Notes under the pieces: generated by a model
What the model was told of the DNA's origin: nothing
The model's database searches: none
What the model saw: the letters and a program-made list of their open reading frames with translations, nothing else
Part shown: positions 8,971 to 64,000 of the stretch, one piece after another
Numbering within the stretch: the stretch's first letter is position 1
How the letters are laid out: each line of letters opens with the position of its first letter
Position numbers and translations under genes: made by a program
IMG/VR virus record: IMGVR_UViG_3300028805_000083
Location: 37,572 to 101,571 of that record
From: a virus
Lineage: Duplodnaviria > Heunggongvirae > Uroviricota > Caudoviricetes
Strand: one strand, 5' to 3'
DNA length: 64,000 nucleotides

Positions 8971-9486
8971 TTAGCTTTCTGTATTTTCAGCAATTATTCT
9001 TTCTCTAACCTCGTCAAGAACCTTACCTAGCAAGTTCTGACCTCTCCAATTCTTTTCATCATCAATTAATTGGTTATTTTGATGTAACCCTACACCATAT
9101 ATACAATCCACTGGAGACGCTTCAACAAAACTCTTTCCCATGTATCTCTCACCTAGCAAAGCCTCTTGGAGTTTAGGACACTTGGTATATTTAAGATAGT
9201 TTGCATCAAGCATGACTTGATAACGTTTCTCATTCCAAACTTTATCATCATAGTTCTTAACCTCCCTACCCAATGCCTTTGCAACTTTGGGGTCTTTACC
9301 ATCTTTGATTATTCTCTCAGCTATTTCATCGTCACCAAATGTCTTGGCTTTAACGAACATGAAATACTGTTCCGCATTGTGGAACTCGTGCTCTTTACCC
9401 TCATACTCAGCAGTAAAAATTGAAGGATGCCAATTTGAAGGCCATCCACTCCAGAAAAATACGTGTTTGTCTGTAACTCTAATCAT
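8971..9486 (-). CDS. NADAR domain protein (YbiA/DUF1768 family)
   Basis: FFWSGWPSNW, AEQYFMFVKAKTFGD, AKALGREV, EASPVDCIYGVG match the conserved blocks of the NADAR family. Confidence 0.7.
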   Translation of the reverse strand: MIRVTDKHVFFWSGWPSNWHPSIFTAEYEGKEHEFHNAEQYFMFVKAKTFGDDEIAERIIKDGKDPKVAKALGREVKNYDDKVWNEKRYQVMLDANYLKYTKCPKLQEALLGERYMGKSFVEASPVDCIYGVGLHQNNQLIDDEKNWRGQNLLGKVLDEVRERIIAENTES

Positions 9487-13864: not shown

Positions 13865-14063
13865 TAATATCTTCTACGGCATCAACTGTTTCAGTTGTAC
13901 TACTACTATTATAATAGTAAGTTCTATTGTTATGATAAGGATTATATCTATCATGGGAGTTATTAGAAAGTTCTCCCATGAAATAGAATGTTTCCGCACA
14001 AGAAACCATTAAGCAAATAACTAAGGCTACTCTAATTAACCCTCTAAATAAATCTCTTATCAT
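13809..14063 (-). CDS. hypothetical small secreted or membrane protein
   Basis: 84 aa with a hydrophobic N-terminus. Confidence 0.35.
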   Translation of the reverse strand: MIRDLFRGLIRVALVICLMVSCAETFYFMGELSNNSHDRYNPYHNNRTYYYNSSSTTETVDAVEDINDYEQDTARTYPQQEYEY

Positions 14064-14989
14064 TACCCAATTTTGATGTCTTCATAATTCTCATGATACC
14101 ATTTGTCGAATTCCTCAAACTCAGCGTCTGAGAACTCCTTACGTACTGCATCATACTCGATGTAATCGCAATACTTCACCTTAACGATGATACGATTACC
14201 ACTACCATCGCAAAGAGGAATGGTTGGACGTGCAACAATACCCTCTTCAAGCATGGTTGGGTCAGCAGCCCTATCAAACTGTGTGGTAAAACCAGCACGT
14301 ACCTTATCTTCAATCTCTTTAAGTGTCATAACACCCAAGAAAGGAACAGTGTTAAGATTCAAACCCTTACAAAGAGCGTCACGAACATCCTTTGGAGTCC
14401 ACCAACCTTGCTGCTTAATGTCGAATACAAGGAAATCATTACCATTCTGAATATAGCGAGAGCCACATTTCTGAATTCCACTTCCGAAATACTCGCCATA
14501 GATATAAATGGGAACTTCCTCTAGTTCCACACTGTAGAAACCTTTTGAGAGTGGTGTATCAATGCTATTGTAACCAATCATTTCATCTTCTCCAAGCTCT
14601 GGAGTATAGTACTGTACCTTGTTTGTATCCTTATTTTTCACAGGAGCAAATCTAGCACTCTCCTTGGGGAACATTGTACAAAGCTGTGGCTTAATTCTCT
14701 CACCAATTTTCTCAAGCATTTCAAACTGTCCATGCTGTGACTGTGCTTTCTCAGTTTTACCCTCAACACGAATCTCACCTGTTGAAGGGAAGAATGCAAT
14801 CTTGGAATTTGTACCATCTATTTTACTTGTAGCCTCCCAAGGACAATTGAACAAATGACCAGCCTCCTTAAATGAGAACTCACCAAGGATAATCTTGTTC
14901 TTGAATTTTGCCCATGCCTTATTAGGGCATTTGCTTGCGTCAAAGATATACCTTTTATACAATGTCTGTATTTTCTGGTAGGTTTCCAT
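14063..14989 (-). CDS. RNA ligase, Rnl2 family (T4 RnlB-like)
   Basis: EATSKIDGTNSKIAF is KxDG motif I (compare T4 Rnl2 EKIHGTNFS). GEYFGSGIQK matches motif IIIa (GEFAGPGIQK) and FLVFDI matches motif IV (FYVFDI). Confidence 0.8.
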   Translation of the reverse strand: METYQKIQTLYKRYIFDASKCPNKAWAKFKNKIILGEFSFKEAGHLFNCPWEATSKIDGTNSKIAFFPSTGEIRVEGKTEKAQSQHGQFEMLEKIGERIKPQLCTMFPKESARFAPVKNKDTNKVQYYTPELGEDEMIGYNSIDTPLSKGFYSVELEEVPIYIYGEYFGSGIQKCGSRYIQNGNDFLVFDIKQQGWWTPKDVRDALCKGLNLNTVPFLGVMTLKEIEDKVRAGFTTQFDRAADPTMLEEGIVARPTIPLCDGSGNRIIVKVKYCDYIEYDAVRKEFSDAEFEEFDKWYHENYEDIKIG

Positions 14990-16320: not shown

Positions 16321-16543
16321 TCTTCTTGAATACGTCTTTGAAAGGCTTTACAATGCTTTTCCAACTGAATAGTCTATCAACTAATTTCTCACTGTCTAAG
16401 TCTATTACAAGACCCTCTAGTATTCCAAGTTTCTCTTTATATGTCGATGCTTCTTTTGAAACATCAACAAGGGTTGATTCCAACTGCTTGATTTTGTTTT
16501 TTAAGCCGTTGTACTCTGCCATCGGGACTTCTATCCTAGACAT
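16307..16543 (-). CDS. hypothetical coiled-coil protein
   Basis: ORF of 78 aa. Confidence 0.35.
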   Translation of the reverse strand: MSRIEVPMAEYNGLKNKIKQLESTLVDVSKEASTYKEKLGILEGLVIDLDSEKLVDRLFSWKSIVKPFKDVFKKNDTQ

Positions 16544-17112
16544 ACTCTTTCAGAATTTTCTATAAAATTAGTAAACTTGTCAGCAGTATCTTTAGAGATA
16601 GCTGGGCACAAATCCTTAATCACATGGAAGTTTACGTGAGGTAACCCCCTCAGTCCATCTTTTACAGAATCTTGGATGCAATAATCGTAGGCAATACCAG
16701 CGACATCTATGTCAGTCACTTTCAACTGCTCTTCACATATTGTAATAAGCTTGTCACAAGACTTACTATTCTTGAAGATAGAATACTCTTCGTGGTCTTC
16801 GTTCACGCCCTTTCTCAAAACAAGGTAATCTGCCTTAATCTTATTAAGTGCCTCAAGAATCGGCTCATAGATAGCTGCACCCTTTGAATGCTGAACACAG
16901 TGAACTGGCCACATACCACCATTATCCTTGAACGAACAGTGTGTGAACGGATGCCAATCAGTTGTAAGGATAATCTTATCATACGCTGGACCATTTTCTA
17001 TGATAAACTGAGCGAGTTTATCCATTGCTGCTGTTGCTCCATTAACAGCAAGCTTGCCGCCCTCCAAGAAATCATATTGTGGGTCCACTATCAACAAAAT
17101 TTTTGTATTCAT
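16531..17112 (-). CDS. pncA: nicotinamidase, isochorismatase family
   Basis: LLIVDPQYDFLEGGKLAV, TTDWHPFTHCSF and WPVHCVQHSKGA match PncA (ALLLVDLQNDF...DWHP..H.SF...HCV). Confidence 0.75.
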   Translation of the reverse strand: MNTKILLIVDPQYDFLEGGKLAVNGATAAMDKLAQFIIENGPAYDKIILTTDWHPFTHCSFKDNGGMWPVHCVQHSKGAAIYEPILEALNKIKADYLVLRKGVNEDHEEYSIFKNSKSCDKLITICEEQLKVTDIDVAGIAYDYCIQDSVKDGLRGLPHVNFHVIKDLCPAISKDTADKFTNFIENSERVCLG

Positions 17113-17896: not shown

Positions 17897-17932
17897 TAAA
17901 GACCCTAATAAATTATATTGTTAGGGTCTTCA
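17897..17932 (-). terminator. Strong hairpin at the 3' end of the CCA-enzyme gene
   Basis: AAGACCCTAA...TTAGGGTCTT is a 10-bp stem flanked by A/T-rich sequence. Confidence 0.45.
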
Positions 17933-19319
17933 ATTTATTTTCAACAATTTCAAATGCTTCATCCTTGGTCATATTAGTATTCTCAAAGTAGGCATCTTTA
18001 ACTGCTTCTAGTAGTATACCAACAAGAGGTGAAGACTTGATACTAAACTCTTTCATAATGTCGTTTCCAGATATTGGAAGTTTGACATTTGCAGCTTTTT
18101 CAGCATCTTCCATTTCCTCAATCCTATTAAGAATATCAAGAACTTGTCTCTTTTTCTTACCATAGGTACAATGCAAGTTGTTGGCATTCATTAAGTCAAC
18201 TGTTGCACCAAGGTTTTCTCCAGTGGTATTAATAAATTTTCTAATCTTCTTATCTGGGGGCATTACACCATCAGCGTAAAGCGCAAATGCTCTATGATAC
18301 TTAATGGCTGTTTCTACCGTATTGATAACGTAGTTAGGGAACTTCATTTTCTTGAGGTCATCAGCAGCAACTTCAGCACTAAACTTATCAGGATTAACAT
18401 CCCTTCTACTATCAGTGATAACCTTACCAACATCATGGAACAATGCCGCTAGGCGATTATCAACATATGGCTGTACAGTATCTAACACATTCATGGTGTG
18501 GTCGAAAGTAGAAACCATTGGATTCTTTGACTCATAAGCATAAGTTGTGTCATATATGTCTGGCATTACCCTATGCAATATACCACAGTAGTACATCTTA
18601 CGAATACCGATACTAGGTTTCTCACAAAGCAGTATCTTTGATATTTCTTCACTGATACGCTCTTGAGATATAATGCTTATTCGATGCGCATTCTTAACCA
18701 TACCTAGCCATGTGTTTTTCTCAATTCCCCAACCGAATCTAGTTGAGAATCGAATAACACGCAATATACGCAATGGGTCATCATTGAATGTAACATCTGG
18801 GTCGGTTGGCGTTTTAATAACTTGATTAACAAGGTCATCCAATCCATTGTTGTAGTCATGAATCTTCTCCGTGCTAATGTTGTAATACAAAGAATTGATT
18901 GTAAGGTCACGCCTCTTAGCGTCCTCTTGAATCGTACCATACACGGTATCTGGATTTCTGCTCTCCTTATGATACTGCTCCTTACGAGTCTGAACACACT
19001 CAACCTCAATGTCTTTCAGCTCATCGTTTTTATAAAGCTGAAATTTAGCAGTTCCATAAGTTTCAAACAGAACAGGATTACTTCCTTGTACAAAACATTG
19101 ATGCTTCATTGTCATGTAGTTTGCAAATAGCATTCCTCCGTTTTTAATGTCTACACAAATATCGACATCTTTACAAGGTATTTTTAATAGAAGGTCTCTT
19201 ACACATCCACCAACTAGAAATACATGGTTTTCAAATGCAGTACCTTTGATTGATTCTTGTATTAGTTTAACTAATTTTTTAATCCTTTCGTCAGCGTTTT
19301 TAAACAATATTTCGTTCAT
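17913..19319 (-). CDS. cca: CCA-adding tRNA nucleotidyltransferase with an HD domain
   Basis: HVFLVGGCVRDLLLKIPCKDVDICVD is the pol-beta nucleotidyltransferase head (GGxVRD...DxD). LAALFHDVGK is an HD motif. 468 aa. Confidence 0.8.
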   Translation of the reverse strand: MNEILFKNADERIKKLVKLIQESIKGTAFENHVFLVGGCVRDLLLKIPCKDVDICVDIKNGGMLFANYMTMKHQCFVQGSNPVLFETYGTAKFQLYKNDELKDIEVECVQTRKEQYHKESRNPDTVYGTIQEDAKRRDLTINSLYYNISTEKIHDYNNGLDDLVNQVIKTPTDPDVTFNDDPLRILRVIRFSTRFGWGIEKNTWLGMVKNAHRISIISQERISEEISKILLCEKPSIGIRKMYYCGILHRVMPDIYDTTYAYESKNPMVSTFDHTMNVLDTVQPYVDNRLAALFHDVGKVITDSRRDVNPDKFSAEVAADDLKKMKFPNYVINTVETAIKYHRAFALYADGVMPPDKKIRKFINTTGENLGATVDLMNANNLHCTYGKKKRQVLDILNRIEEMEDAEKAANVKLPISGNDIMKEFSIKSSPLVGILLEAVKDAYFENTNMTKDEAFEIVENKLKTLTI

Positions 19320-23298: not shown

Positions 23299-25356
23299 TT
23301 AAGCTCTAGTAAGCTCGTATTCAAGGGCATCTTCTGTCTTGGCTACATCGCTTTTAACTACATACTTTCCGAAGATAGACTCTGTAGGCTTGATGTACTC
23401 GTCCAACTTGATGCCGCACTCTTTAGCAAGGTCTTTAGCTTGCTTTCTAATCTTCAAGTCAGGTCTCTGACCAAGCAACTTGAGTGCTTCTATGTTCTTA
23501 TTGCGGATGCAATTCTCAACAGCCGAACAATCAAAGTCGTTAACGACATTGACATCAATGTTCTTCTTAGAGACAAGTGCCTCTACAACCCATACCTCGC
23601 TAGGATATTCACAAGCTACGTTAATAGCTGTATCGTTATTGAGGTCTTTAGCGTTGAAGTCGAAAGTCTTACTTGACAGTATAGACTTAAGCATACTCTT
23701 CAACAAAGTCTTGTCCTCATTAGAGGTGTTAACCTCTTCACTACCACTCAGATAAAGCAGTGACTCAAGAAGTGTCTCACCGAAACCATCCTCAATCTTA
23801 GAGTCGAAACCCTCGCAATTAACGATAGTATCGAAAAGCTTGAACATCTTATTGTTGATAGCTGAGAAGATAGGAACTCTCTGGTTGAATTCGTAATTAA
23901 CGTTAATCTTACCACGCTCATTTTCAATCAGCTTGATTGCGCCAATCTCATCGTTCTCATCAATGAGTTTATGGAGAAGAATAGATGGGTCAATTGCCTC
24001 ACGATTAAGGAAGTCATTACTTGTCATTCCAATCTTAGAGAAATAGCCATCCCTTGTGATGTCAGCACCGAAGATGTCTTGCATTCTCACAAGAGACAGT
24101 GTACCATATTGGTCTTTGCGGTACTGCATTGCAATCAATGACTTGTCGTTATTGATTGGGAGGTTGAAATCCATAAACAAGTAAATCTTGTTGTTGTTAT
24201 CAACACCATTGAAGTTACCAGTCTTAATGAAGGTCTTCTGAACGAAGTGTTGGAATGCTCTAGTGTTCAGAATGTTAAGAACCAAACGACCATCGTTCTC
24301 GTATGCCACTGCATATGATTCTGGCTGTTTCTTAGCCATTTCCAATATGTCAGTGATATTCCACTTGAAGCCCAAATCCTTTGGCAAACGCATGAACATA
24401 CTCATCTTGATGCCGAAATTATCAAAGACGTTATAAATGCTCAGTTTCTCGTTGCCTTGCGTATAAGGACTAAGCATACCATAGTTATGACAAGTCTGTG
24501 CTTCAACGATACCATTACCACCCTCTACAGTGAAACCGATATGTGCGAATGCATCAGTTTCCTTACGGCTGAAGTCGAACAAGAAGTATTGGTCACGATT
24601 TGATTTACTTGTGACATAGTTCTTGAAGTAACTTTCCTCACGAGAGATACACCATCCTGTACGTCCGTTACCACAAAGCTTGTGGCTAGATTCAAATGAT
24701 GGTACGTGAACAATCACACAAGGACCTTCGTTGAAAACAACATCACAGTCTTTAGTATTATGTTCAATATAAGCAAGAAGGTCATCCTTACCCTCTTTCC
24801 AATCGTATGATTTGTTCAAACAATCTAAAATTGCTTGATGGAGAGAGTCAGCAGACTTAAGGGCAGAACAAGTGCTATAGAACTTGTTCTTGATTCCCAT
24901 AGGCTTCTTGTTGAACGACTTAAATACATCGTACCATTTTTTAATATTGGCATCATTATATGCCTCAATAGGTGTATACTCCTTACCTAAGATAGACTCT
25001 GTTAAAATCTTTCTCTGGTCGGTGTTGAAGCGTGAAATGATATTCTTAATAAACGCAATACGGTCAACACCTTCAATCTCTTTAAGTAACTGCGCAATAC
25101 CACTTTTATTAGAGTATGATACCACGTTCTTCTTTTCGAGCTTACTAATCAGATTGCTGTTACCAACAATCCAATTGTGGATATGCTCAAGCTCTTCAAA
25201 CGTCATAGACTGAGAGAAAATCATTCTAACAGCCCAAATCTGATAGTTTGACTGACCATCGAACATTTCACATACCTTAATAAACAATTTGTTAGTCTCT
25301 GGATTGATGCCATACTTATCAATCAAAGGCTGCATCTGTTTTTTGTTATAAGTCAT
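23299..25356 (-). CDS. Large hypothetical protein with C-terminal ankyrin-like repeats, paralogous to 25691-28153
   Basis: 685 aa. The block TGWCISREESYFKNYV is shared with TNWCISKNKTYWNNYI in the neighbouring gene. Confidence 0.5.
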   Translation of the reverse strand: MTYNKKQMQPLIDKYGINPETNKLFIKVCEMFDGQSNYQIWAVRMIFSQSMTFEELEHIHNWIVGNSNLISKLEKKNVVSYSNKSGIAQLLKEIEGVDRIAFIKNIISRFNTDQRKILTESILGKEYTPIEAYNDANIKKWYDVFKSFNKKPMGIKNKFYSTCSALKSADSLHQAILDCLNKSYDWKEGKDDLLAYIEHNTKDCDVVFNEGPCVIVHVPSFESSHKLCGNGRTGWCISREESYFKNYVTSKSNRDQYFLFDFSRKETDAFAHIGFTVEGGNGIVEAQTCHNYGMLSPYTQGNEKLSIYNVFDNFGIKMSMFMRLPKDLGFKWNITDILEMAKKQPESYAVAYENDGRLVLNILNTRAFQHFVQKTFIKTGNFNGVDNNNKIYLFMDFNLPINNDKSLIAMQYRKDQYGTLSLVRMQDIFGADITRDGYFSKIGMTSNDFLNREAIDPSILLHKLIDENDEIGAIKLIENERGKINVNYEFNQRVPIFSAINNKMFKLFDTIVNCEGFDSKIEDGFGETLLESLLYLSGSEEVNTSNEDKTLLKSMLKSILSSKTFDFNAKDLNNDTAINVACEYPSEVWVVEALVSKKNIDVNVVNDFDCSAVENCIRNKNIEALKLLGQRPDLKIRKQAKDLAKECGIKLDEYIKPTESIFGKYVVKSDVAKTEDALEYELTRA

Positions 25357-32929: not shown

Positions 32930-33496
32930 TTATTTTATCATTTGATTGAAAATTTCTACTATACGATTCTTATGATTAAAAGCCCATTCATAATTATCAA
33001 TGTCTTTGACCTTAACCCAAGCAATCTTGCCAACCTCTTTGCCCTCATTATGCTCTTTAGAGAACTTAAAATCAGATGTAATGCGGTCTTCTATTTTGGC
33101 AGCAAAACGGAAAGTAACGTTCTGCCTATTTGCTTTAACTGGGTCATCCTCATATCCAATGAAAATCAAACTTTCAATAGGAATCTTAACTCCAGTTTCC
33201 TCAAAACACTCACGCACAGCACATTCTTTGGCGGTCTCGTTCCTAGAAAGATAGCCGCATGGACAATTCCACATGCCTCTGAAATCTGCTGCCTCTTCTC
33301 CGCGCTCACATGCTAAAACACACCAATCACCATTTTCGTCTTTAGAAAATACGAATAATGCAGTAGCCATAGAACGGCTAAACCACCCTAAAAAACGCCC
33401 ATATCTATCATAGCAAGGCTGATTTTCCAATGTTAACTCTGGGGCATTTTCTACCCATTTAAGGAGTTTTGTCAATAATTTCTTTAAATAATTCAT
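32930..33496 (-). CDS. Nudix hydrolase
   Basis: Nudix box GYLSRNETAKECAVRECFEETGV (G.5E.7REx2EExG). Confidence 0.8.
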   Translation of the reverse strand: MNYLKKLLTKLLKWVENAPELTLENQPCYDRYGRFLGWFSRSMATALFVFSKDENGDWCVLACERGEEAADFRGMWNCPCGYLSRNETAKECAVRECFEETGVKIPIESLIFIGYEDDPVKANRQNVTFRFAAKIEDRITSDFKFSKEHNEGKEVGKIAWVKVKDIDNYEWAFNHKNRIVEIFNQMIK

Positions 33497-36983: not shown

Positions 36984-38744
36984 TTATTGTTCTACCTTTG
37001 TCCAATTATATAATCCTAAGTAGTAATTACCTATACCCATCCATACATTATAACCACTACTACCACTTGGGACTGTTAATGTACCTCCTGTTTTTACCTT
37101 ATTGAATGTATAATTTTTTATTGTAGGAGCTGTTATGGCATTTGACACTATACTTGTTAGACTGCTACATTCATAGAAAACATTATCACCAATAGTTGTA
37201 ACACCACTACCTATGGTTATACTTGTTAGACTGCTACAGTCACGGAAAGCCTCACCGCTAATACTTGTAACACTATTAGGTATGACTATATTTGATAGTT
37301 TCCTACAGTTTTGGAAAGCACCAAAACCAATACTTGTAACACTATTACCTATGGTTATACTTATAAGACTACTACAATTATTGAAAGCACCAAAACCAAT
37401 ACTTGTAACACTATCTGGTATTGTTATATTTGTTAAACTACTACAGTTTTGGAAAGCATAATTACCAATACTTGTGACACTATCTGGTATAATTGTTGTT
37501 TTACAACCTACAATTAAGGTATTTGTCGATGTTTCAATTATTGCATTACAATTATTACGTGAGTCATATACAGTATTGCCACTATTAACATTTATACTTG
37601 TTAAACTACTACAGTTTTGGAAAGCACCACCACCAATACTTGTAACACTGTTTGGTATTGTTACACTTGTAAGACTTGTACAGCCACCAAAAGCACCACT
37701 ACCTATGCTTGTAACGCCACTACCTATGGTTACACTTGTTAAACCACTACAATAGTTGAAAGCAGCATCACCTATGCTTGGAGTTGAATCACCTATAACA
37801 ACGGTTTCAAGATTCGGCCAACTAGACCTAAAGGAAGAACTTAACTCACACTTTGCATTATAATTTAGAACCTTTAATGCATTAGTACTTTCAAAAGCAC
37901 CACTACCTATGCTTGTAACGCCACTACCTATGGTTACACTTGTAAGACTTGTACAGCCACCAAAAGCACCACTACCTATGCTTGGAGTTGAATCACCTAT
38001 AACAACGGTTTCAAGATTCGGCCAACTAGACCTAAAGGAAGAACTTAACTCACACTTTGCATTATAATTTAGAACCTTTAATGCATTAGTACTTTCAAAA
38101 GCACCACTACCTATGCTTGTAACACTATCTGGTATGGTTACACTTGTTAAACTACTACAGTTTTGGAAAGCACCACCACCAATAGTTGTAACACTATCTG
38201 GTATATCTATACTTGTTAAACTACTACAATTATTGAAAGCAGCAATGTCAATACTTGCAACACTGTTTGGTATGGTTATACTTGTTAAACTCTCACAACT
38301 TAAGAAAGTATTAATACTAATATTTGTAACACTATCTGGTATAATAGCTTCTATCAAATTACCATTATAAAATGTAGGAGCATTATTACCACCCAATTTC
38401 GTCTTATCATATAACTCATATTTAACTGTGTGAACACCTGTCGTGTCAAATGTGTACGCAGTCACAAGTTCGTCAAGCATCACACCATCAATCTCCATTG
38501 ACTTAAATATGTTCTGCTCATAATTTGTTCTTAACGCTGTTGGCTCAGATGTACTTGTTACATTATACTTGCATATAAGCCTTGTCTCTACATAAGGATT
38601 ATAATGCACCTCATTCTCTTGTACACAGAGACTTACATTAGGCAAAATTAAATTTTGCCTAGCTTCTTCATACTCAGTATGATTATTAAATTTCTTTAAA
38701 TATTTTCCCATAATTCTTAAATGTATTTTTCTAATAAATATCAT
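36984..38744 (-). CDS. BspA-type leucine-rich repeat surface protein
   Basis: About 15 repeats of IPDSVTSIGSGAF.NC.SLTSI.IG. A near-perfect tandem duplication of 204 bp lies inside the gene. Confidence 0.8.
   Translation of the reverse strand: MIFIRKIHLRIMGKYLKKFNNHTEYEEARQNLILPNVSLCVQENEVHYNPYVETRLICKYNVTSTSEPTALRTNYEQNIFKSMEIDGVMLDELVTAYTFDTTGVHTVKYELYDKTKLGGNNAPTFYNGNLIEAIIPDSVTNISINTFLSCESLTSITIPNSVASIDIAAFNNCSSLTSIDIPDSVTTIGGGAFQNCSSLTSVTIPDSVTSIGSGAFESTNALKVLNYNAKCELSSSFRSSWPNLETVVIGDSTPSIGSGAFGGCTSLTSVTIGSGVTSIGSGAFESTNALKVLNYNAKCELSSSFRSSWPNLETVVIGDSTPSIGDAAFNYCSGLTSVTIGSGVTSIGSGAFGGCTSLTSVTIPNSVTSIGGGAFQNCSSLTSINVNSGNTVYDSRNNCNAIIETSTNTLIVGCKTTIIPDSVTSIGNYAFQNCSSLTNITIPDSVTSIGFGAFNNCSSLISITIGNSVTSIGFGAFQNCRKLSNIVIPNSVTSISGEAFRDCSSLTSITIGSGVTTIGDNVFYECSSLTSIVSNAITAPTIKNYTFNKVKTGGTLTVPSGSSGYNVWMGIGNYYLGLYNWTKVEQ
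37797..38204. repeat. Near-perfect tandem duplication (2 x 204 bp) inside the LRR gene
   Basis: Blocks 37797-38000 and 38001-38204 are identical over more than 150 bp. They encode the duplicated peptide GAFESTNALKVLNYNAKCELSSSFRSSWPNLETVVIGDSTPSIG. Confidence 0.7.
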
Positions 38745-38957: not shown

Positions 38958-38979
38958 ATACTTGCTGTATGCTTCTTTG

Positions 38980-39062
38980 TAGTGGTAGCTGAATTCGAAT
39001 CAGCGATAGGTTTCCCAACTTCCTTATGAGAGAAGCGCAATTGACCACTCTGCCATACCACT
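38980..39062 (-). tRNA. Type-II tRNA with a long variable arm and a CUCAUAA loop, anticodon CAU
   Basis: Acceptor AGTGGTA/TACCACT, D stem GCA/TGC, anticodon arm CTTCT-CTCATAA-GGAAG, 14-nt variable region, T arm GCTGA-TTCGAAT-TCAGC. Confidence 0.55.
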
Positions 39063-43611: not shown

Positions 43612-44598
43612 TTATTTACTAAAAATTTCAAAAGCATCATCTACTAGTTTGTCAACCATATCTATTTGATAAGTTGCTAACGCACTCCTAAACATTTTAC
43701 CACTCATTGTACGTCTGCCTTTCCTCTTCTTTCCACCACTAGAAACTGTTTTAACAACCTCTTTCTTTTTTGGCGGCTTCAAGTGTTCAGCTTCAGTTGC
43801 ATATCCAATGTGTGTAAATCCTAGGAATGAGCCGTTCTTCTCAATCTTACAAATCTCAACATGATTAGCACCATACTTGAATTCACCAGTACGAACTTTA
43901 ATCTGCTTAACGTATCTCAATGTTTGGTCTTTAAGACTCATTCCAACTGCAAACATCGCATCAAAGAAATTAGTAAGCTTTTTGCTTCCACTAAGACTGT
44001 TCTGTGTGAGGGGTGAACCTAAGTTTCGTTTTGGGGTATGAGATAGAACTAGTATGCTAGCCCCATACTTCTTTTTAATTTCACATAGATTTTTCATTAG
44101 TTTACCAGCAGTAGTTGCTGTGTCTTTCATATTAACAAGCCAACTCAAGTTATCTACAATTAATATCTTGGAGTTATACTTTATAATATTAGCTTCAATA
44201 GCCTCTATGATGACTTCATCAAATGCTTTCTTAGAATACTCGCAATAATCCCTTACTTTATCACTATCAAGCTCGACCCTAATAAACTTATCGTTAAAGT
44301 TAAACGTTTTCTTGGTTTTTTCATCTGTGTACCTAAGTTCAAATTGCTTCTTACTTAACTCAAAGTCATAATAAAGAATGGTGTCATCACCCTTTAGTCT
44401 TTCAGCAATAGAATTACCAATTTGTACGGCAAGAATACTCTTACCAACATTAGCATCTGCAAAAAGGCAGCAAACTTCATTCTCAAACCAAAACTCTTTC
44501 CAGAGCTTATTTGGATTCTTCTGTGCCTTTGCTTCCTCAATTGCTTGATTAGCAGTCATTGCGCTGAAGATGTCTGTTAAAGTTGGTTTATTTGCCAT
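43612..44598 (-). CDS. RecA-like/AAA_25 P-loop ATPase, RepA-like replicative helicase or primase-associated
   Basis: Walker A ADANVGKS. ASILVLSHTPK resembles RepA/DnaB-like proteins. The start is probably MANKPTLTD near 44598, because the longer ORF would overlap a tRNA-like gene. Confidence 0.55.
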   Translation of the reverse strand: MANKPTLTDIFSAMTANQAIEEAKAQKNPNKLWKEFWFENEVCCLFADANVGKSILAVQIGNSIAERLKGDDTILYYDFELSKKQFELRYTDEKTKKTFNFNDKFIRVELDSDKVRDYCEYSKKAFDEVIIEAIEANIIKYNSKILIVDNLSWLVNMKDTATTAGKLMKNLCEIKKKYGASILVLSHTPKRNLGSPLTQNSLSGSKKLTNFFDAMFAVGMSLKDQTLRYVKQIKVRTGEFKYGANHVEICKIEKNGSFLGFTHIGYATEAEHLKPPKKKEVVKTVSSGGKKRKGRRTMSGKMFRSALATYQIDMVDKLVDDAFEIFSK

Positions 44599-44619
44599 TA
44601 TGTAAAAATTAATGATTAG

Positions 44620-44694
44620 TGTACGGTAGAGGAATCGAACCTCTCTTCTTCTCAGGAAAACTCCTCGACATCCTAACCGATAGACGAACCGCAC
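44620..44694 (-). tRNA. tRNA-like gene with a non-canonical anticodon arm
   Basis: Acceptor GTGCGGT/ACCGTAC, D arm GTCT..GGAT, T arm AGAGG-TTCGATT-CCTCT. The anticodon region folds only as AGGA-GTTT-TCCT. Confidence 0.45.
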
Positions 44695-44865: not shown

Positions 44866-44939
44866 AACCCCCTAGAGGAATCGAACCTCTTTTTCTAGCG
44901 TCACGCTATTGTTGTCCTAGCCATTAGACGAAGAGGGTA
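44866..44939 (-). tRNA. tRNA-like gene with a non-canonical anticodon arm, paralog of 44620-44694
   Basis: Acceptor ACCCTCT/AGGGGGT, D arm GTCT-AATGGCTA-GGAC, T arm AGAGG-TTCGATT-CCTCT. The anticodon region is TAGCG-TGA-CGCTA with a 3-nt loop. Confidence 0.45.
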
Positions 44940-46442: not shown

Positions 46443-46462
46443 AATTACCTATTTTATATTAG

Positions 46463-46539
46463 TTGCAGAGGATGGATTCGAACCAATCGACCTCCTAGGG
46501 ATGAGCCTAGGCGAGCTGACCAAACTGCTCTACTCTGCG
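46463..46539 (-). tRNA. tRNA-like gene with a CUCAU-containing anticodon loop of 6 or 8 nt and a bulged T stem
   Basis: Acceptor (C)GCAGAG/CTCTGCA, D stem GAGC/GCTC, palindromic anticodon stem CCTAGG around CTCATC. Confidence 0.4.
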
Positions 46540-47479: not shown

Positions 47480-47851
47480 TCAGTAGGACATACGTGATGG
47501 GATACACCCCCTCACACCCCCTCTTGGGTCTTCACAATCACCGTTATATCTAGGTATAATGTGTATATGGCAATGCATAACGGTTTGTCCAGCAGCCTCG
47601 CCACAATTCATCCCTATATTATACCCATTAGGTTTGTATTTATCATCAAGTATTTCTTTAACGTGGTCAACTGCGCAAACAAGAGCACCCAATTCCACTT
47701 GGTTTAAATCAAAATAGGTTTTACAATGTCTTTTTGGAATTAATAGGGTATGCCCTTCCGAGACTGGATAACCATCTAAAATAGCCACCCATAAAGAATC
47801 TTGATATATTATTCTATCTTCTTTAACGCCACAAAATACACAATCTTCCAT
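47480..47851 (-). CDS. HIT-family nucleotide hydrolase
   Basis: HTLLIPKRH and the histidine triad HCHIHIIPR. Confidence 0.85.
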   Translation of the reverse strand: MEDCVFCGVKEDRIIYQDSLWVAILDGYPVSEGHTLLIPKRHCKTYFDLNQVELGALVCAVDHVKEILDDKYKPNGYNIGMNCGEAAGQTVMHCHIHIIPRYNGDCEDPRGGVRGCIPSRMSY

Positions 47852-48351
47852 TATTCTTCTACGGCTATACGTTTTATCTCACCAATTACAACATCCAAAG
47901 CCTCATTAATGGCTGCTTCTATGTTCTTGCCTCTCAACCCATCAACATTGATTTTGCTGTATTTGAAATCTACTTTCTTGTCAGTAAGGGTAGCCACACA
48001 AATCCAAACCGTATTATCTGAGTCTTCATCAGCCGCCATAGGTGGAACTACGTTACCCACAACAGCCACACAAACGTCCACATTAAGTTTATAAATGCCG
48101 TTGAGAGCCATTTGGCAAGCTGCTTGGGAACTAACAAGCCCATTGTTTTTAAACACGTTGTGAGAGACTTCTAGCATTTTCTCCATGTGGTCTTCATCGA
48201 CTGTAACAATTGTACCGCCATAAACGGTTGAAAGTCCACACATGCTTGAGATTGATGCGCCAAGCAAACCACTAGTGCAATGCTCAACAGTTCCGATGGT
48301 TAGACCAGCGTTCAGAAGCTCTAACCCTAATACTCTTAATTTATCCCTCAT
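47851..48351 (-). CDS. pncC: CinA C-terminal domain protein / NMN deamidase
   Basis: TVEHCTSGLLGASIS matches the CinA-C ESCTGG motif. 166 aa. Confidence 0.7.
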   Translation of the reverse strand: MRDKLRVLGLELLNAGLTIGTVEHCTSGLLGASISSMCGLSTVYGGTIVTVDEDHMEKMLEVSHNVFKNNGLVSSQAACQMALNGIYKLNVDVCVAVVGNVVPPMAADEDSDNTVWICVATLTDKKVDFKYSKINVDGLRGKNIEAAINEALDVVIGEIKRIAVEE

Positions 48352-49727: not shown

Positions 49728-49812
49728 AAGCCGTAGTGAGCGTAGTGGGATTCGAACCCACGTAGCTTATTGCCATAATAGTTTTAGAGACTATCCCAAT
49801 CGACCTCTCTGG
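49728..49812 (-). tRNA. Type-II suppressor tRNA with anticodon CUA (reads UAG), tRNA-Tyr-like and supF-like
   Basis: Acceptor GAGCGTA/TACGCTC is a 7/7 match. D stem CCA/TGG with an 11-nt loop. Anticodon arm ATAGT-CTCTAAA-ACTAT gives C34-U35-A36. The variable arm is 16 nt. T arm GTGGG-TTCGAAT-CCCAC. The bacterial tRNA-Tyr loop CUGUAAA differs by a single G-to-C change. Confidence 0.7.
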
Positions 49813-49829
49813 CATACGCTCATTATCTC

Positions 49830-51139: not shown

Positions 51140-51263
51140 CAGGGACTGACGGACTCGAACCGCCATCTTTTATTAACAGTTAAAGGTACAATCTGTTCCG
51201 AAGTCGAGACTGTGTGATTCCTTAAATCGCAACAAACCACTCTTACCATTGAGCTAAATCCCT
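51140..51263 (-). tRNA. tRNA gene carrying an intervening sequence of about 50 nt
   Basis: 5' half AGGGATT-TA-GCTC-AATGGTAA-GAGT and 3' half GGCGG-TTCGAGT-CCGTC-AGTCCCT have complementary acceptors but lie 124 nt apart. The insert contains a 25-nt element that also occurs at 15551-15575. Confidence 0.5.
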
Positions 51264-51610
51264 ATATAAATACAAAAGGCTGAGAATTTGACCTTATTGT
51301 TGATGCCTTTATGCAAGCGTTGGAACTTGTTCTTCACACGCCACCTTACGATGGACGTAGACACCATGCACGATGATTTTGTGAAAACCACCTAAACTCT
51401 TACTGATTTAAACCTTTCGGTACAGAATCATAACATTCATTTCACCACCAAGCTGTTGCGCATTTTGACTAGATGCCTCCAGTCCACTCAGATGACTACT
51501 TTTACTAGTTTGTTGGATTCCTTGCGAGTCACCAACCACTTCATATTACAGAAGTATAAGTGCATTTTATCTGCTCAGTGTCGCACACTTTCGCTTTTAA
51601 TCTTTATTTT

Positions 51611-51688
51611 AAAAGACGACAGGATTCGAACCTGTAACACTCGGCTCCTCAAGCTGATGCTCTACCGTTGAGTTACACTTTCACAACT
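51611..51688 (-). tRNA. tRNA-like gene, anticodon possibly GAG, with mismatched stems
   Basis: T arm ACAGG-TTCGAAT-CCTGT and D arm ACTC-AACGGTA-GAGC. The anticodon arm is imperfect. Confidence 0.4.
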
Positions 51689-52400
51689 AATGGAAGACGA
51701 GGTGCGACTCTTAGAATCTGTGTCTTTTGGACACAGCCCACTAAATCGCCTTCCTATGCCAAACCCACCACAAGTTTGTAGCACTAATAAACACTCTCAG
51801 CCTTACGGTTCTTAACGCTTATAACATTCATCATGCCTTTCACGTTAAGACAAATGTGTATTTGAACCCAACACGCCAACTGGTGATTATTGTATCAAGT
51901 CCCACAAGGTAATCTATTGTATCACTACTCAACCCAAGCTGTTAACCTAGGTAGCATACTACACGATTTTACCTACCGAACAGTATACCGTACCTTGTGC
52001 TTTTCAGTGAAATGCCCTAGTTTCCTAGAACATCTGAGTCGGCTTAGTTGTCAATATCCGTCTCATTTATCCCATCACTGGATTATCCTTCCATCTGGCC
52101 ACGAAAGCTGACCATTAGCCTATGCCTTTTGCAAGACATTTCCTCTTGGAATCGGCTTATTCTTTTGGGTATTATTTCCATTTTGGTTTATTATAATCGG
52201 TAAACTGCTTCCTCTTACGAGGTGGGTCTATATCCCAAGCTCCGATTTTTTACACCATTATAGAATACCTTCCCCAATGCATTGTTTTCTAGTACACGTT
52301 CTCTAGAATTATGGCTTCCGAAGTCACCATAGTCATGGATTGTTTAACCACATAAAACCCACTTTTACCGTTGTCTACAGCACGAAAAGGCATATCTCGT

Positions 52401-52843: not shown

Positions 52844-52861
52844 AATAGTTGCGGGAGTCAG

Positions 52862-52936
52862 GCTCGAACTGACACGATGCGTTTCTAGCGTAGAAGGCTT
52901 ATGAGACCCACATGTTACCATTACATTATCCCGCTA
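52862..52936 (-). tRNA. tRNA-like gene with a CUCAUAA loop (CAU) and an extended variable region
   Basis: Acceptor AGCGGGA/TCCCGCA is a 6/7 match. D arm ATGT-AATGGTA-ACAT. T arm GTCAG-TTCGAGC-CTGAC. Confidence 0.45.
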
Positions 52937-54985: not shown

Positions 54986-55392
54986 TGATTTTCAGATATT
55001 TTAATGTGGACCTAGAGGGATTCGAACCCTCGTTCCAGAAATTCGCCTCATAAGAAATTATACAAGCTTCCCCAAAGTGTCCGAAAACACCGCCTTTGAG
55101 ACCACCTCATTTTGAGAAAACGAGGAAAACTAGGGGTGGATGACTAGAGTCACCGATTCCACCATCTTTTAAATAAAAAATATTAAAAAGAATAATGCTA
55201 GGATGTTCTGTTCCTAAGAGCCTAGCCTCTCGGCTCACATTACGCAGCTATAGCGTACTCGTAAGCAGGAGAATTAACATTCTCGCCAGTTATATTTTTT
55301 GCTATTTCAAGTGTATGCCCACTGCTTGTTTCTTACCAAACTCAACTCATAACGGTCAAAACCAAATAGGCCCAAATTATTTGTATTTTTGG

Positions 55393-59095: not shown

Positions 59096-59806
59096 TTATT
59101 TATCTTCTACATACACACCGCAATATTGAGGTTTACCCAATTCAACCCACTCATCGTGAGTCATAATGTGATATGTTTTGTGTTTTGGTTGTTTCTTATT
59201 ACCGACACTACTAATATCCCTTGTCTTCGAATCAACAGACTTTATGATGTCTGGTATTCTATAGCTTCCCACCATCTGTTTAATCAAAGACGCATAGTTC
59301 TTTGCTAAATAATACTCAGAGCATGTTATCCACAATGGAGTTTTAGACTCACCACGTAGAATCTCTACACAATCTGGAATATTACAATGGTATGGATTCT
59401 TAGCAATACCAACAATTGATATGTCTGGTCTGTTGTATTCTGTCATCAGAGCGTTTGCTAGACGCATACCAATTCCAGGAGTTCTGTCTTTTCCATTTTC
59501 AGATAACCAAACAAATCCGTCAACAATGATTGTATCAACGTCATCTAAATCTAGCATCTTCAAACATTGCATAATACATGGTAATTCACGTTTATACAAC
59601 TCTCCAGGTTTATACTCTGCATCAATGGTTTCCCTTTTACTTGTGACGAAATATTTTACTTTCGTGTCTGTCCAACTTTCAAATACACCGCCAACAGTAT
59701 ATGAATATCCATCGTAATAGTATGTATCAAATGCAACAATCATCCTAATATTTTTTCTATATCTTTTTTTAACCCATAAAAATTCCTTTTTAATGGTAAT
59801 GGACAA
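59096..59806 (-). CDS. nfi: endonuclease V (Nfi) homolog
   Basis: IVAFDTYY, EYKPGELYKRELPCIMQCLKML, IIVDGFVWLSENGKDRTPGIGMRLANAL and ISIVGIAKNPY line up with the E. coli EndoV blocks (ADVGF; [41 protein letters not shown]). Confidence 0.65.
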   Translation of the reverse strand: MSITIKKEFLWVKKRYRKNIRMIVAFDTYYYDGYSYTVGGVFESWTDTKVKYFVTSKRETIDAEYKPGELYKRELPCIMQCLKMLDLDDVDTIIVDGFVWLSENGKDRTPGIGMRLANALMTEYNRPDISIVGIAKNPYHCNIPDCVEILRGESKTPLWITCSEYYLAKNYASLIKQMVGSYRIPDIIKSVDSKTRDISSVGNKKQPKHKTYHIMTHDEWVELGKPQYCGVYVEDK

Positions 59807-61658: not shown

Positions 61659-62534
61659 CTACGTTGCGTCTCCGCACAGTATTCCGTAACCCTTACACCA
61701 TTTTCTTATTGCAGTATCAGACACCCCAAAAATACGTCCGACTTTAGAAAAATTATTTTTTTCAAGTAAAGATATTAATTCTTCTTTGGATGGTCTGCTA
61801 ACTTTCCTTCTTGTTTCATGATAACATTTAGAGCACAGTTTAATTTTTGGGCTTGATGTACTGCACCCACATTTCTCACAAGTTCCTTTTTTGTGTTTTC
61901 TTTTTATTAAAGATTCTATTTTTCTTATTGTGTCTTTTTTATTCCTTTTTACAAACCCAAACTCTACTATTCCTTCAGATAATTTATCATAACATTCGTC
62001 ACATAATAAACTTGGGGTTTTATCTATTTCTTTACCACACATCCTACAATAATAATGTTTTTGAAAATTTTTATTTTCGATGTTGTGAGTTCCGCAGAAG
62101 TTATCAGTTTGTGAATGACAATTGGGGCATAATATTTGTAAGTTCTCTAGCCTATTGTCTGTATTATCACCATTGATGTGGTGCAACTGTAGACTAATTT
62201 GCTCTCCATTCCATCGAGTACATCCACATTTTTCACATTTGTGCTGCTTCAACCCAGATGAAAATAATTTCCATTTAAGATATGATGGCTTAATGAATGA
62301 GTCCTTTGTGAGATACTCATTTATATCTTTTTCATTGTTACCAAGTCTATTGCCAATGTTGGTTTTTTTACCAGTAAAATGCGAAATATCCAAACCAAGT
62401 TCTTTAATATATCTTTTTACATAACGATAATTTCCACCAGTTGGTTTCCAACCAATCTTTCGGCATACATCAGCATATGTGGTGCTTTCTTCTACATATT
62501 TTTTAAATTTTTCTAAATCCATAACACAAATCAT
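61659..62534 (-). mobile_element. HNH homing endonuclease
   Basis: LQLHHINGDNTDNRLENLQILCPNCHS is the HNH motif. Extra CxxC Zn-ribbons are present. It is embedded between tRNA genes. Confidence 0.8.
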
Positions 62535-62594: not shown

Positions 62595-62666
62595 TTCCCC
62601 CAGAGAATTTTGCAATCTCGACCACATGTTTAAGAGACACGTGCTCTACTTCTGAGCTATGAGGGA
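62595..62666 (-). tRNA. tRNA-Lys(CUU) variant with a non-canonical T loop
   Basis: Acceptor TCCCTCA/TGGGGGA, D arm GCTC-AGAAGTA-GAGC, anticodon arm CGTGT-CTCTTAA-ACATG. The T loop reads TGCAAAA rather than TTCGAAT. Confidence 0.5.
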
Positions 62667-62675
62667 ATATTCTTG

Positions 62676-62766
62676 TGCTTCCACAGGGAGTCGAACCCTG
62701 CTTTTCGGTTTAAAAGACCGAAGTAATCCGTCTGTCTCCAGGCACTTACCGATATACGATGGAAGC
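62676..62766 (-). tRNA. tRNA-Lys(UUU) variant with about 19 extra nt in the D region
   Basis: Perfect 7/7 acceptor GCTTCCA/TGGAAGC across 91 nt. Anticodon arm TCGGT-CTTTTAA-ACCGA. T arm CAGGG-TTCGACT-CCCTG. Confidence 0.5.
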
Positions 62767-62772
62767 GTATCG

Positions 62773-62845
62773 TGCGCCCAGAGGGACTCGAACCCTCGAC
62801 CCCAGCATTAAAAGTGCCGTGCTCTACCAACTGAGCTATGAGCGC
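62773..62845 (-). tRNA. tRNA-Lys(UUU), canonical
   Basis: GCGCTCA-TA-GCTC-AGTTGGTA-GAGC-A-CGGCA-CTTTTAA-TGCTG-GGGTC-GAGGG-TTCGAGT-CCCTC-TGGGCGC. Confidence 0.75.
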
Positions 62846-62857
62846 ATTAAACCTAAG

Positions 62858-62929
62858 TACTCCTAAAGGGATTCGAACCCTTAACCCTCGGCTTAAGAGG
62901 CCGCAGCTCTACCGTTAAGCTATAGGAGC
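62858..62929 (-). tRNA. tRNA-Lys(CUU)
   Basis: GCTCCTA-TA-GCTT-AACGGTA-GAGC-T-GCGGC-CTCTTAA-GCCGA-GGGTT-AAGGG-TTCGAAT-CCCTT-TAGGAGT. Confidence 0.7.
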
Positions 62930-63877: not shown

Positions 63878-63963
63878 CGGAGGGGCAGGAATTCGAATCC
63901 TATACCCTAATGGGTACGTTCTGATTAGCAGTCAGACCCAGTTCCTTTCTGGTTGCGCCCTCC
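63878..63963 (-). tRNA. tRNA-Ser(GCU), type II
   Basis: Anticodon arm TCTGA-CTGCTAA-TCAGA. Variable-arm hairpin GTACCC-ATTA-GGGTAT. T arm TAGGA-TTCGAAT-TCCTG. D arm CCAG-AAAGGAA-CTGG. Confidence 0.55.
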
Positions 63964-63971
63964 TTTTAAAG

Positions 63972-64000
63972 TCGAGGTGGTAGGATTTGAACCTACGTGT
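63972..64000 (-). tRNA. 3' part of another tRNA, truncated by the window end
   Basis: T-arm signature GGTAGG-ATTTGAA-CCTAC read on the minus strand. Confidence 0.35.

Follow-up and report, generated by a model that had tools for sequence, protein, structure and literature searches.

Transfer RNAs (tRNAs) encoded by phages and able to evade tRNA-directed immunity are an established concept (PMC10264068, PMC11555353, PMC12409363). In the closest described system, the PARIS nuclease AriB cuts E. coli tRNA-Lys(UUU), its prime target, and likewise tRNA-Thr(UGU) as well as tRNA-Asn(GUU), between positions 40 and 41, and phage T5 requires its own tRNA-Lys(UUU), its tRNA-Thr(UGU) and its tRNA-Asn(GUU) to overcome PARIS (PMC12409363). 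The determinants of AriB were mapped in E. coli as U39, A41 and U16/U17, the resistant tRNA-Lys of T5 carries A39, C41 and C16, and the second AriB subunit was modelled to contact the D loop (PMC12409363). tRNA-Lys is targeted by PrrC as well, and the PrrC-cleaved molecule is repaired by Pnk and Rnl1 of phage T4 (PMC12409363 and PMC2610378). Here, a cluster of four tRNA-Lys genes is described at positions 62595-62929 (minus strand) of a 64,000-nucleotide (nt) stretch of phage DNA (IMG/VR record IMGVR_UViG_3300028805_000083, positions 37,572 to 101,571), the whole of which is referred to as the window. The first-pass annotation of the window had related this cluster to host nucleases that cleave tRNA-Lys and to phage tRNA variants that resist them, and both premises agree with the cited work: AriB and PrrC are nucleases of this kind, and the tRNA-Lys of T5 defeats AriB.

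In the 5' to 3' direction of the minus strand the anticodons of the cluster are CUU, UUU, UUU and CUU, and the genes are denoted (a) 62858-62929, (b) 62773-62845, (c) 62676-62766 and (d) 62595-62666. Four Lys anticodons inside 335 nt are no chance pattern. The presence of four tRNA-Lys genes at the positions first assigned to them, all on the minus strand, was borne out by ARAGORN, by the Rfam tRNA model (RF00005, gathering score 29 bits) and by comparison with homologues. By software, the Lys anticodons were confirmed in part: ARAGORN called (a) and (b) as Lys, reported (c) as Val and made no call for (d), and Rfam supported (a), (b) and (d) as tRNAs and left (c) under the threshold, the Lys assignment of the latter being settled by comparative data. 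Bacterial lysyl-tRNA synthetase (LysRS) identifies its substrate by the anticodon UUU or CUU (U35, U36) and by the discriminator A73, and these identity elements, anticodon UUU/CUU and A73, were present in all four genes. None of the four encodes the 3' CCA. The genes are separated by spacers of 12, 6 and 9 nt, the shortness of which suggests that all four may be made from one transcript; a promoter and terminator scan around the cluster gave a number of sites not above that in shuffled sequence.

Genes (a) and (b), the two upstream members, are canonical. The 72-nt tRNA-Lys(CUU) (a) has A73, was called by ARAGORN at 62857-62929 and scored 67.3 bits with Rfam; an identical copy was found at 8389-8460 of L004 (L-numbers denote loci of relatives). 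The 73-nt tRNA-Lys(UUU) (b) was called by ARAGORN at 62772-62845 and scored 72.3 bits, and its minimum free energy fold is the cloverleaf. It carries A31-U39 and the D loop AGUUGGUA with U16 U17.

Gene (c) is a 91-nt variant of tRNA-Lys(UUU) whose D loop holds a hairpin. The perfect 7-bp acceptor stem and the roughly 19 extra nt in the D region, recognized already at first pass, were confirmed from the sequence. Further, the gene has the anticodon arm UCGGU-CUUUUAA-ACCGA, the T arm CAGGG-UUCGACU-CCCUG and A73, and both GG in the D loop and the T loop UUCGACU are retained. The anticodon UUU is found at RNA positions 53-55 (62712-62714, minus), and the inserted hairpin, UGCCUG-GAGA-CAGACG, which has a GNRA loop and is mismatched at C25.A36, at RNA positions 23-38 (62729-62744, minus). 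It is because of the insertion that (c) is not recognized by Rfam, which gave 21.9 bits over 62676-62743 with the 5' half misaligned; when nt 26-44, 22-40 or 23-38 were removed in silico, ARAGORN called Lys(UUU).

The homologues of (c) comprised 40 copies from about 40 rumen phage contigs, which represented 18 distinct variants, all 91 nt long and free of insertions or deletions. When these were read as tRNA-Lys with the insertion hairpin, 96.8% of cells were paired and 11 pairs showed double changes, located in the acceptor stem (4 pairs), the anticodon stem (4 of 5), the T stem (1) and the inserted hairpin (2). The acceptor and anticodon stems were paired in 100% of cells and the T stem in 98.9%, and no shuffle and no slid register came near these values of pairing and covariation. 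The loop CUUUUAA and A73 were unchanged in all 18 variants. Within the inserted hairpin, compensatory changes replaced G28-C33 by A-U in L099 and U27-A34 by A-U in L101, the pair 25:36 was C.A, U.G or C-G, and the loop was GAGA, GAAA, GAAG or UAAA; the sequence of the insertion was far better conserved than the acceptor stem, the anticodon stem and the flanks. The 3' CCA is encoded by two copies, and in L070/L111, L098, L119 and L120 the gene stands beside Lys(CUU) as the sole Lys gene with a UUU anticodon within 900 nt. A covariance model of the family scored seven copies of (c) at 111-117 bits versus at most 54 bits for ordinary tRNAs. A search with this model of 88 sources (the window and viral loci, 0.85 Mb) gave no 91-nt member beyond the seven known, and an exact 32-mer of (c) had no match in IMG/VR, the relatives differing by 1-2 bases. 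Based on the homologue comparison, it was concluded that (c) is a real tRNA-Lys(UUU).

Other readings of the same gene were tried and rejected. The ARAGORN call, a Val(GAC) tRNA with a long variable arm (62675-62766), relies on a stem that is paired to only 60% and devoid of covariation; U33 is missing, and its "anticodon" drifts from GAC to GGC and AGG in close homologues. Gene (c) is not a class II tRNA, as 4 nt lie between its anticodon and T arms and the extra hairpin is located 5' of the anticodon arm. The long irregular D hairpin (10-44) drawn by RNAalifold leaves the double changes at 27:34 and 28:33 unexplained, its lower part being possible.

We proposed that the hairpin occupies the 3' part of the D loop and that the D stem is closed by G10-C44, U11-A43 and A12-U42. 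The D-stem columns are invariant and in part fixed by the search pattern, and covariation does not choose between G10-C25 and G10-C44; the second pairing was preferred by analogy with variants in L056, L075 and L062. Two of these loci contain Lys(UUU) genes in which the D stem is unambiguous and the 3' part of the D loop bears an 8-nt GNRA mini-hairpin, GCGAAAGC or GCGCAAGC (L056 1435-1518 and L075 1199-1282, minus). The third contains Gly(UCC) and Gly(GCC) genes with a D-loop hairpin (L062 12813-12893 and 13311-13391, minus), whose 5' part UCGUAUAACGGU resembles that of (c); canonical Gly(GCC) and Gly(UCC) genes were also called by ARAGORN in this 13.9-kb locus. The D-loop-hairpin tRNAs of the three loci are 81-84 nt long and were noticed by means of the (c) covariance model.

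Gene (d) is a 72-nt tRNA-Lys(CUU) with A73, U31-A39 and the anticodon loop CUCUUAA, which scored 49.8 bits with Rfam and whose elbow is a variant one. The unusual T loop UGCAAAA, reported by the first-pass annotation, was confirmed (62608-62614, minus); it belongs to an N-G-C class and is flanked by U53.U61. The 7-nt D loop was read from the sequence as AGAAGUA (62647-62653, minus) and is without G18 G19, so that the canonical elbow, defined by G18 G19, T54-Psi55-C56 and G53-C61, is not found in (d). The gene recurs with one base changed in L005 and L006, and in its L046 and L029 versions the acceptor and T-stem changes preserve pairing, partly by G.U. ARAGORN missed the variant-elbow genes in all sources on which it was run, namely the window, L005 and L006.

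The D arm of (d), UAGCUCAGAAGUAGAGCA, was found in 48 viral contigs (L007-L054) and 37 genome contigs (L125-L161). As the variant-elbow set, 48 distinct well-formed 72-nt tRNAs bearing the D loop AGAAGUA were considered. T-loop positions 54-56 were N-G-C in every one of the 48, UUCGAAU occurring in none, and position 53:61 was U.U in 29 and G-C in 17. The T-stem pairs 49-52 were paired in 48/48, each by 2-5 pair types, and pairing was kept in 47-48/48 for the acceptor stem and in 36-48/48 for the anticodon stem. The set includes Lys(CUU and UUU), Thr, Val, Asn, Met, Ile and Phe isoacceptors, and the discriminators fit the isotype, with A for Lys (8/8), Val, Phe and Ile, G for Asn, and U or A for Thr. 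Cellular examples, Thr(UGU) and Phe(GAA), were present in many Patescibacteria/Saccharibacteria and in some gammaproteobacterial genome bins. Judged by these patterns, (d) belongs to a recurrent and evidently functional tRNA design that is neither Lys-specific nor confined to phages.

Clusters of Lys genes recur in the relatives and contain 2-6, typically 3-5, genes. Around (c), the order is Lys(CUU), Lys(UUU) (sometimes two), (c) and then a fourth Lys gene, which in most relatives is 81-87 nt long, has a long variable arm and usually carries CUU (UUU in L004). This fourth gene has a three-pair D stem, and its variable arm, the helix of which is short, covaries as CUG/CGG, GUGA/UCAC, GCG/CGC and CGA/UCG; the cap is GAAA, GUAA or GAGA in most copies and a seven-base loop in L004. 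In the window, the fourth place is occupied by (d), and the cassette comprises two pairs, one canonical (CUU and UUU) and one non-canonical (UUU and CUU).

Canonical and expanded genes of the same anticodon were also paired in the clade for Thr(UGU), Asn, Trp, Gln(UUG), Asp, Arg, Met and Gly. Long-arm tRNAs with anticodons other than those of Ser, Leu and Tyr were seen in L004, L005, L055, L062, L068 and L080, the anticodons being those of Lys, Thr UGU, Asn, Trp, Gln, Asp and Arg; they often adjoin a canonical copy with the same anticodon, and the extra arms are often GNRA-capped. In the window, Met CAU tRNAs of 84-88 nt with a class II-like long variable arm are found, for which the coordinate list reads 38979-39062, 52848-52935 and 49736-49821 (minus). 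Since (c) and (d) are conserved, covarying and in possession of the Lys identity elements, they were judged to be under selection and not decayed copies, and they are very likely functional variant tRNA-Lys genes. The earlier view of the two aberrant copies stands in so far as they appear as selected variants with anticodon and A73 kept, and is weakened in so far as their architectures are not specific to Lys. We infer that both are charged with Lys and used in translation.

Comparison with T5 (PMC12409363) revealed several common traits. In both cases, phage tRNA-Lys genes lie in a tRNA island with scattered HNH genes, and (c) shares with the resistant T5 tRNA-Lys the anticodon-stem sequence U36AAACC41 and C16, the core GGUCUUUUAAACC being common to the two. 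Gene (d) has A39 and is without U16/U17. Of the three AriB determinants mapped in E. coli, none is present in (c) or (d), and (b), keeping U39 and U16 U17, differs in part only. U39 was found in none of the 18 (c) variants versus 22 of the 27 canonical Lys(UUU) genes of the clade, and the hairpin of (c) projects from the D loop, which the second AriB subunit would touch according to the model. The idea that a missing U39 marks the variants in general was considered and discarded, as it is true for (c) and (d) and false for the long-arm Lys genes. T5 relies on point substitutions in a normal cloverleaf, whereas here the scaffold is changed and canonical copies are kept alongside; the present host is other than E. 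coli and is not known to have a PARIS system, and the likeness is drawn from the genes. The same concept underlies the anticodon-loop mutations of phage tRNAs for which evasion of VapC, of PrrC and of colicins D and E5 was proposed (van den Berg et al. 2023, PMC10264068). Unlike those tRNAs, the four of the window have standard anticodon loops, and it is in D loop, T loop and anticodon stem that they differ.

It was proposed that the locus is a diversified tRNA-Lys cassette, in which the canonical (a) and (b) are accompanied by the structurally non-standard (c) and (d), the former a Lys(UUU) with a usually GNRA-capped hairpin protruding from the D loop and the latter a Lys(CUU) with the D-loop/T-loop elbow rebuilt from AGAAGUA with UGCAAAA and U53.U61. 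The tRNAs would be completed by a CCA-adding enzyme supplied by the phage itself. Because the anticodon and A73 are kept, (c) and (d) should be charged by LysRS, and they would read AAA and AAG, which are among the most used codons of the phage. The altered scaffolds would be poor substrates for enzymes recognizing the normal tRNA-Lys body, such as nucleases of the PARIS AriB kind, which make contact with the D loop as well as with the 3' strand of the anticodon stem. Decoding of Lys would in this way survive an attack, the canonical pair serving efficiency and the variant pair serving as insurance, and the same logic might apply to the canonical-plus-expanded twins of other anticodons in the clade. 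That the altered scaffolds are kept in order that the variant Lys set escapes tRNA-targeting host defence nucleases is our tentative preference, to which we give somewhat less than an even chance. The two RNA ligases, the CCA-adding enzyme and genes of NAD+-salvage type, all encoded in the window, were counted in its favour as context.

Several observations weigh against an escape from defence nucleases. The variant elbow is found also in Patescibacteria bins, where no phage arms race is needed, and none of the odd scaffolds (elbow, D-loop hairpin and long arm) is Lys-specific. The absence of U39 from (c) amounts to 3-4 independent changes only, the long-arm Lys variants retain U39, and one T-stem pair of the L004 copy of (c) is mismatched (A.C). 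In all four genes the anticodon loop is of the standard type (CU[C/U]UUAA), so a PrrC-type, loop-directed nuclease is not obviously evaded, and the published evasion route by loop mutation (PMC10264068) is not used here. Lys is the most used amino acid, accounting for 9.9% of codons, and with such heavy use some of the copy number is explained by supply alone. The presence of a phage CCA-adding enzyme is already explained by the fact that none of the four genes encodes CCA. No polynucleotide kinase-phosphatase was detected among the approximately 80 open reading frames (ORFs) of the window scanned with Pfam or PHROGs, although it may lie outside the window, and the sole phosphatase trace in the window was a weak Metallophos match (E = 2e-4).

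A broader reading is possible though doubtful, namely that the clade keeps a parallel and structurally marked tRNA pool that reads the codons already served by canonical copies and is insulated, being either shielded from body-recognizing enzymes or addressed by phage factors, e.g., the CCA-adding enzyme or a GOLLD cage RNA. The marks of this pool would be a usually GNRA-capped D-loop hairpin in Lys UUU, Gly GCC and Gly UCC, an often GNRA-capped arm in the variable region in Lys CUU, Thr UGU, Asn, Trp, Gln, Arg, Asp and Met, or else a re-engineered elbow.

We consider it rather unlikely that codon supply alone accounts for the cluster, i.e., that an AT-rich and Lys-rich phage increased its tRNA-Lys dosage and that the odd shapes are neutral drift still able to work, with no link to defence. 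Besides the share of Lys among the codons, the codon frequencies agree with such a supply (AAA, the top codon among those tabulated, at 62 per 1000 and AAG at 37 per 1000), and other isoacceptors are duplicated in the clade too. However, the conservation of the (c) insertion, the covarying and mostly GNRA-capped arms and the elbow co-change in 48/48 tRNAs argue for selection of the odd shape itself, and Ile, Leu and Glu are frequent too and have no comparable clusters in the window.

It is distinctly unlikely that the hairpin or the elbow acts as a handle, a mark read by a phage-encoded factor so that an insulated tRNA pool results. The mark could be read by the CCA-adding enzyme, by a modification enzyme or a synthetase, by a phage nuclease sparing marked tRNAs or by the GOLLD RNA located 11 kb away. 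GNRA loops are classic docking modules, the sequence of the insertion is near-invariant, and expanded twins for many anticodons occur in the same clade. The phage encodes both a CCA-adding enzyme and a GOLLD-like RNA, and GOLLD cages were proposed to hold phage tRNAs (PMC12286853). On the other hand, the analysis yielded no candidate for a binding protein, cellular genomes without this phage context have the variant elbow as well, and the extra arms differ both in site (D loop or variable region) and in sequence, which argues against one specific reader.

The possibility that (c) and (d) are decoys, i.e., mimics of tRNA-Lys that titrate a tRNA-Lys-directed nuclease or toxin and stay outside translation, was regarded as improbable. 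A decoy would need a perfectly kept anticodon loop and arm, as is observed, and non-productive complexes of phage tRNAs with immune effectors have been discussed (PMC12409363). T5 and other phages carry tRNA-like stable RNAs in their tRNA regions, and as with RNA1, RNA2 and RNA3 of T5, the non-standard genes of the window stand among true phage tRNA genes. Sequence comparison showed no similarity to RNA1-RNA3, and, unlike these, (c) and (d) have a clear anticodon and the complete set of tRNA features. The features required for charging, EF-Tu and the ribosome are conserved (7-bp acceptor stem, A73, 5-bp T stem and, in some copies, an encoded CCA), and in some arrays (c) is the sole local UUU decoder, both of which speak against a role outside translation.

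It was further considered that the 16-19 nt insert of (c) might be an intervening sequence that is excised, the ends being rejoined, e.g., by the phage RNA ligases, to give a 72-75-nt tRNA-Lys; this is highly improbable. The deletions made in silico do give a textbook tRNA-Lys(UUU), two RNA ligases are encoded in the window, and another tRNA of the island bears an insert of about 50-60 nt in the anticodon region. Yet the insert forms a simple hairpin that covaries, its length falls far below that of a group I intron (core of at least 200 nt), no bulge-helix-bulge motif could be drawn by eye at the junctions, and no splicing endonuclease was present among the ORFs scanned. The 8-nt D-loop inserts closed by an unambiguous D stem likewise fit retained arms. 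That (c) and (d) are pseudogenes decaying after tandem duplication is scarcely credible: ARAGORN fails on both and Rfam on (c), and the L004 copy of (c) has a broken T-stem pair, but compensatory double changes in every helix of (c), functional loops invariant over 18 variants and 48 variant-elbow tRNAs with covariation and isotype-consistent discriminators contradict decay, the homologues carrying independent substitutions and not being recent copies.

Among the known non-canonical tRNAs, class II tRNAs (Ser, Leu and Tyr) and allo-tRNAs (PMC5389517, PMC7609411) also have an extra helical arm off the core. In (c), unlike these, the arm is in the D loop and not at 44-48, the acceptor and T stems are 7 and 5 bp, and the anticodon is that of Lys. 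Gene (d) resembles the weak-elbow tRNAs, such as mitochondrial tRNAs and tRNA-Pyl (PMC7609411, PMC4810234), in being without G18 G19 and T-Psi-C; it differs from them in its full-size cloverleaf with C56 and A58 and in a fixed D/T-loop co-pattern shared by phages and Patescibacteria. Phage tRNAs with a D-loop hairpin or variant elbow were not found in PMC7609411, in PMC7162821 or by non-exhaustive full-text searches. A conserved, usually GNRA-capped D-loop hairpin in a tRNA-Lys beside a canonical copy appears to be new, as does the clade-wide set of expanded twins.

The window is part of the tRNA island of a rumen huge phage. ARAGORN reported 15 RNA genes in it on the minus strand. An EndoV-like protein encoded at 59096-59806, 3 kb from the cluster, matched three IMG/VR contigs with 91-93% identity, one of them 295 kb long, and DNA-pattern searches added further viral and metagenome contigs with sample names of rumen type. 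A dense tRNA island is common to all related contigs, and a transfer-messenger RNA (tmRNA) was also present in most of the longer loci; no close relative was found among the GenBank phages searched. The tmRNA and the bacterial-type CCA-adding enzyme indicate that the host is a bacterium. Directly downstream of the cluster lies an ORF of an HNH-type endonuclease (61659-62534, minus) with a weak Pfam HNH_3 match (E = 4e-4), which, used as a query for relatives, gave only one weak match and two 1-kb contigs.

The Rnl2-type RNA ligases and the CCA-adding enzyme that the first-pass annotation had listed in the window were found as two PF09414 (Rnl2-like) proteins and one CCA-adding enzyme. The first ligase (308 amino acids, 14063-14989, minus) matched PF09414 at 1e-16 and PHROG 548 and 968, both "RNA ligase", and has the motif KIDG; the second protein of the family (228 amino acids, 4186-4872, minus) scored 36.3 bits with PF09414 (cut-off 27). 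The CCA-adding enzyme (468 amino acids, 17913-19319, minus) contains the PolyA_pol head, RNA-binding, HD and tRNA_NucTran2_2 domains of Pfam. The co-occurrence of two PF09414 ligases and an HD-domain CCA-adding enzyme in the window recalls the tRNA-Lys repair of T4. Unlike in T4, the ligases are of the Rnl2-like and not of the Rnl1 kind, the window yielded no polynucleotide kinase-phosphatase, and it is by co-occurrence that the ligases are linked to the Lys genes. No phage tRNA nuclease (PIN, HEPN or Toprim) was found among the window ORFs searched.

A GOLLD-like RNA (RF02032) was located at 51277-51754 (minus) of the window and at 16623-17061 of L004 and 16891-17312 of L006, with 73-86 bits and E = 1e-17 to 1e-20 over the full model length, under the gathering score of 150. 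Inside it lies a 72-nt "tRNA-Leu(GAG)" (51611-51682). GOLLD has been described near phage tRNA islands with tRNAs in its linker, its cages having been proposed to hold phage tRNAs (PMC12286853), and the GOLLD-like RNA with its internal tRNA fits these reports. Directly downstream of it is a 124-nt tRNA-like gene (51140-51263, minus; L004 17075-17198; L006 17326-17448), which is 96% conserved across the three phages and scores 41 bits with Rfam; its anticodon region is enlarged by about 50-60 nt, and the arms of acceptor, D and T are normal.

Further unusual RNAs were noted in the island. Two tRNA-like elements (44866-44938 and 44620-44694, minus) have good acceptor and T arms and no anticodon, the "anticodon" arms being UAGCG-UGA-CGCUA and AGGA-GUUU-UCCU with 3-4-nt loops; the second element overlaps the start of the ORF called at 43612-44694. 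The tRNA at 49736-49821 (minus), 86 nt long with the anticodon CUA and a long variable arm, is of the amber-suppressor type and conserved in L004 and L006; despite this CUA tRNA, 10 of the 61 ORFs called under the standard code terminate in TAG. At 46462-46539 (minus), a tRNA of 40 Rfam bits was given a 6-nt anticodon loop and a two-base "anticodon" (ca) by ARAGORN. A probable tRNA-Ser(GCU) with a long variable arm at about 63878-63963 (minus) was missed by ARAGORN and Rfam, and the 3' end of another tRNA at 63970-64000 (minus) is cut by the window edge; in L005, Ile(GAU) followed by Ser(GCU) is found about 1.4 kb upstream of the Lys cluster. The tmRNA (55004-55373, minus) has the tag GENVNSPAYEYAIAA, the tags of relatives being GENVDSPAYEYAIAA and GEIDFSPAYEYAVAA.

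Genes for a large BspA-type leucine-rich-repeat protein (36984-38744, minus) and an ankyrin-repeat protein (23299-25356, minus) adjoin the tRNA island. ORFs related to nicotinamide adenine dinucleotide (NAD) were found on the minus strand at 12181-13422 (NAPRTase), 16531-17112 (isochorismatase-family), 32930-33496 (NUDIX), 47851-48351 (CinA) and 8971-9486 (NADAR), and a HIT protein is encoded somewhere among the small ORFs of the window. This gene set is, as we take it, reminiscent of NAD+ salvage against NAD-depleting defences.

The tRNA finders mislabel the (c) family as Val, Ala or Pro, and ARAGORN misses (d). As such genes are missed or mislabelled, the tRNA inventories of large phages are probably incomplete and their counts too low. 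If the variant copies do work in translation, the range of natural tRNA shapes accepted by the synthetase, EF-Tu and the ribosome would be wider than thought, and the tRNA-Lys(UUU) with a D-loop arm, which is not among the non-canonical types reviewed in PMC7609411, would represent a new natural tRNA architecture. The variants would then offer ready-made scaffolds for orthogonal or tagged tRNAs as well as a test set for the parts of tRNA that are read by defence nucleases. For the phages themselves, the cassette suggests a structural route against tRNA-cleaving immunity, in which copies with the same anticodon are equipped with an extra arm or a rebuilt elbow.

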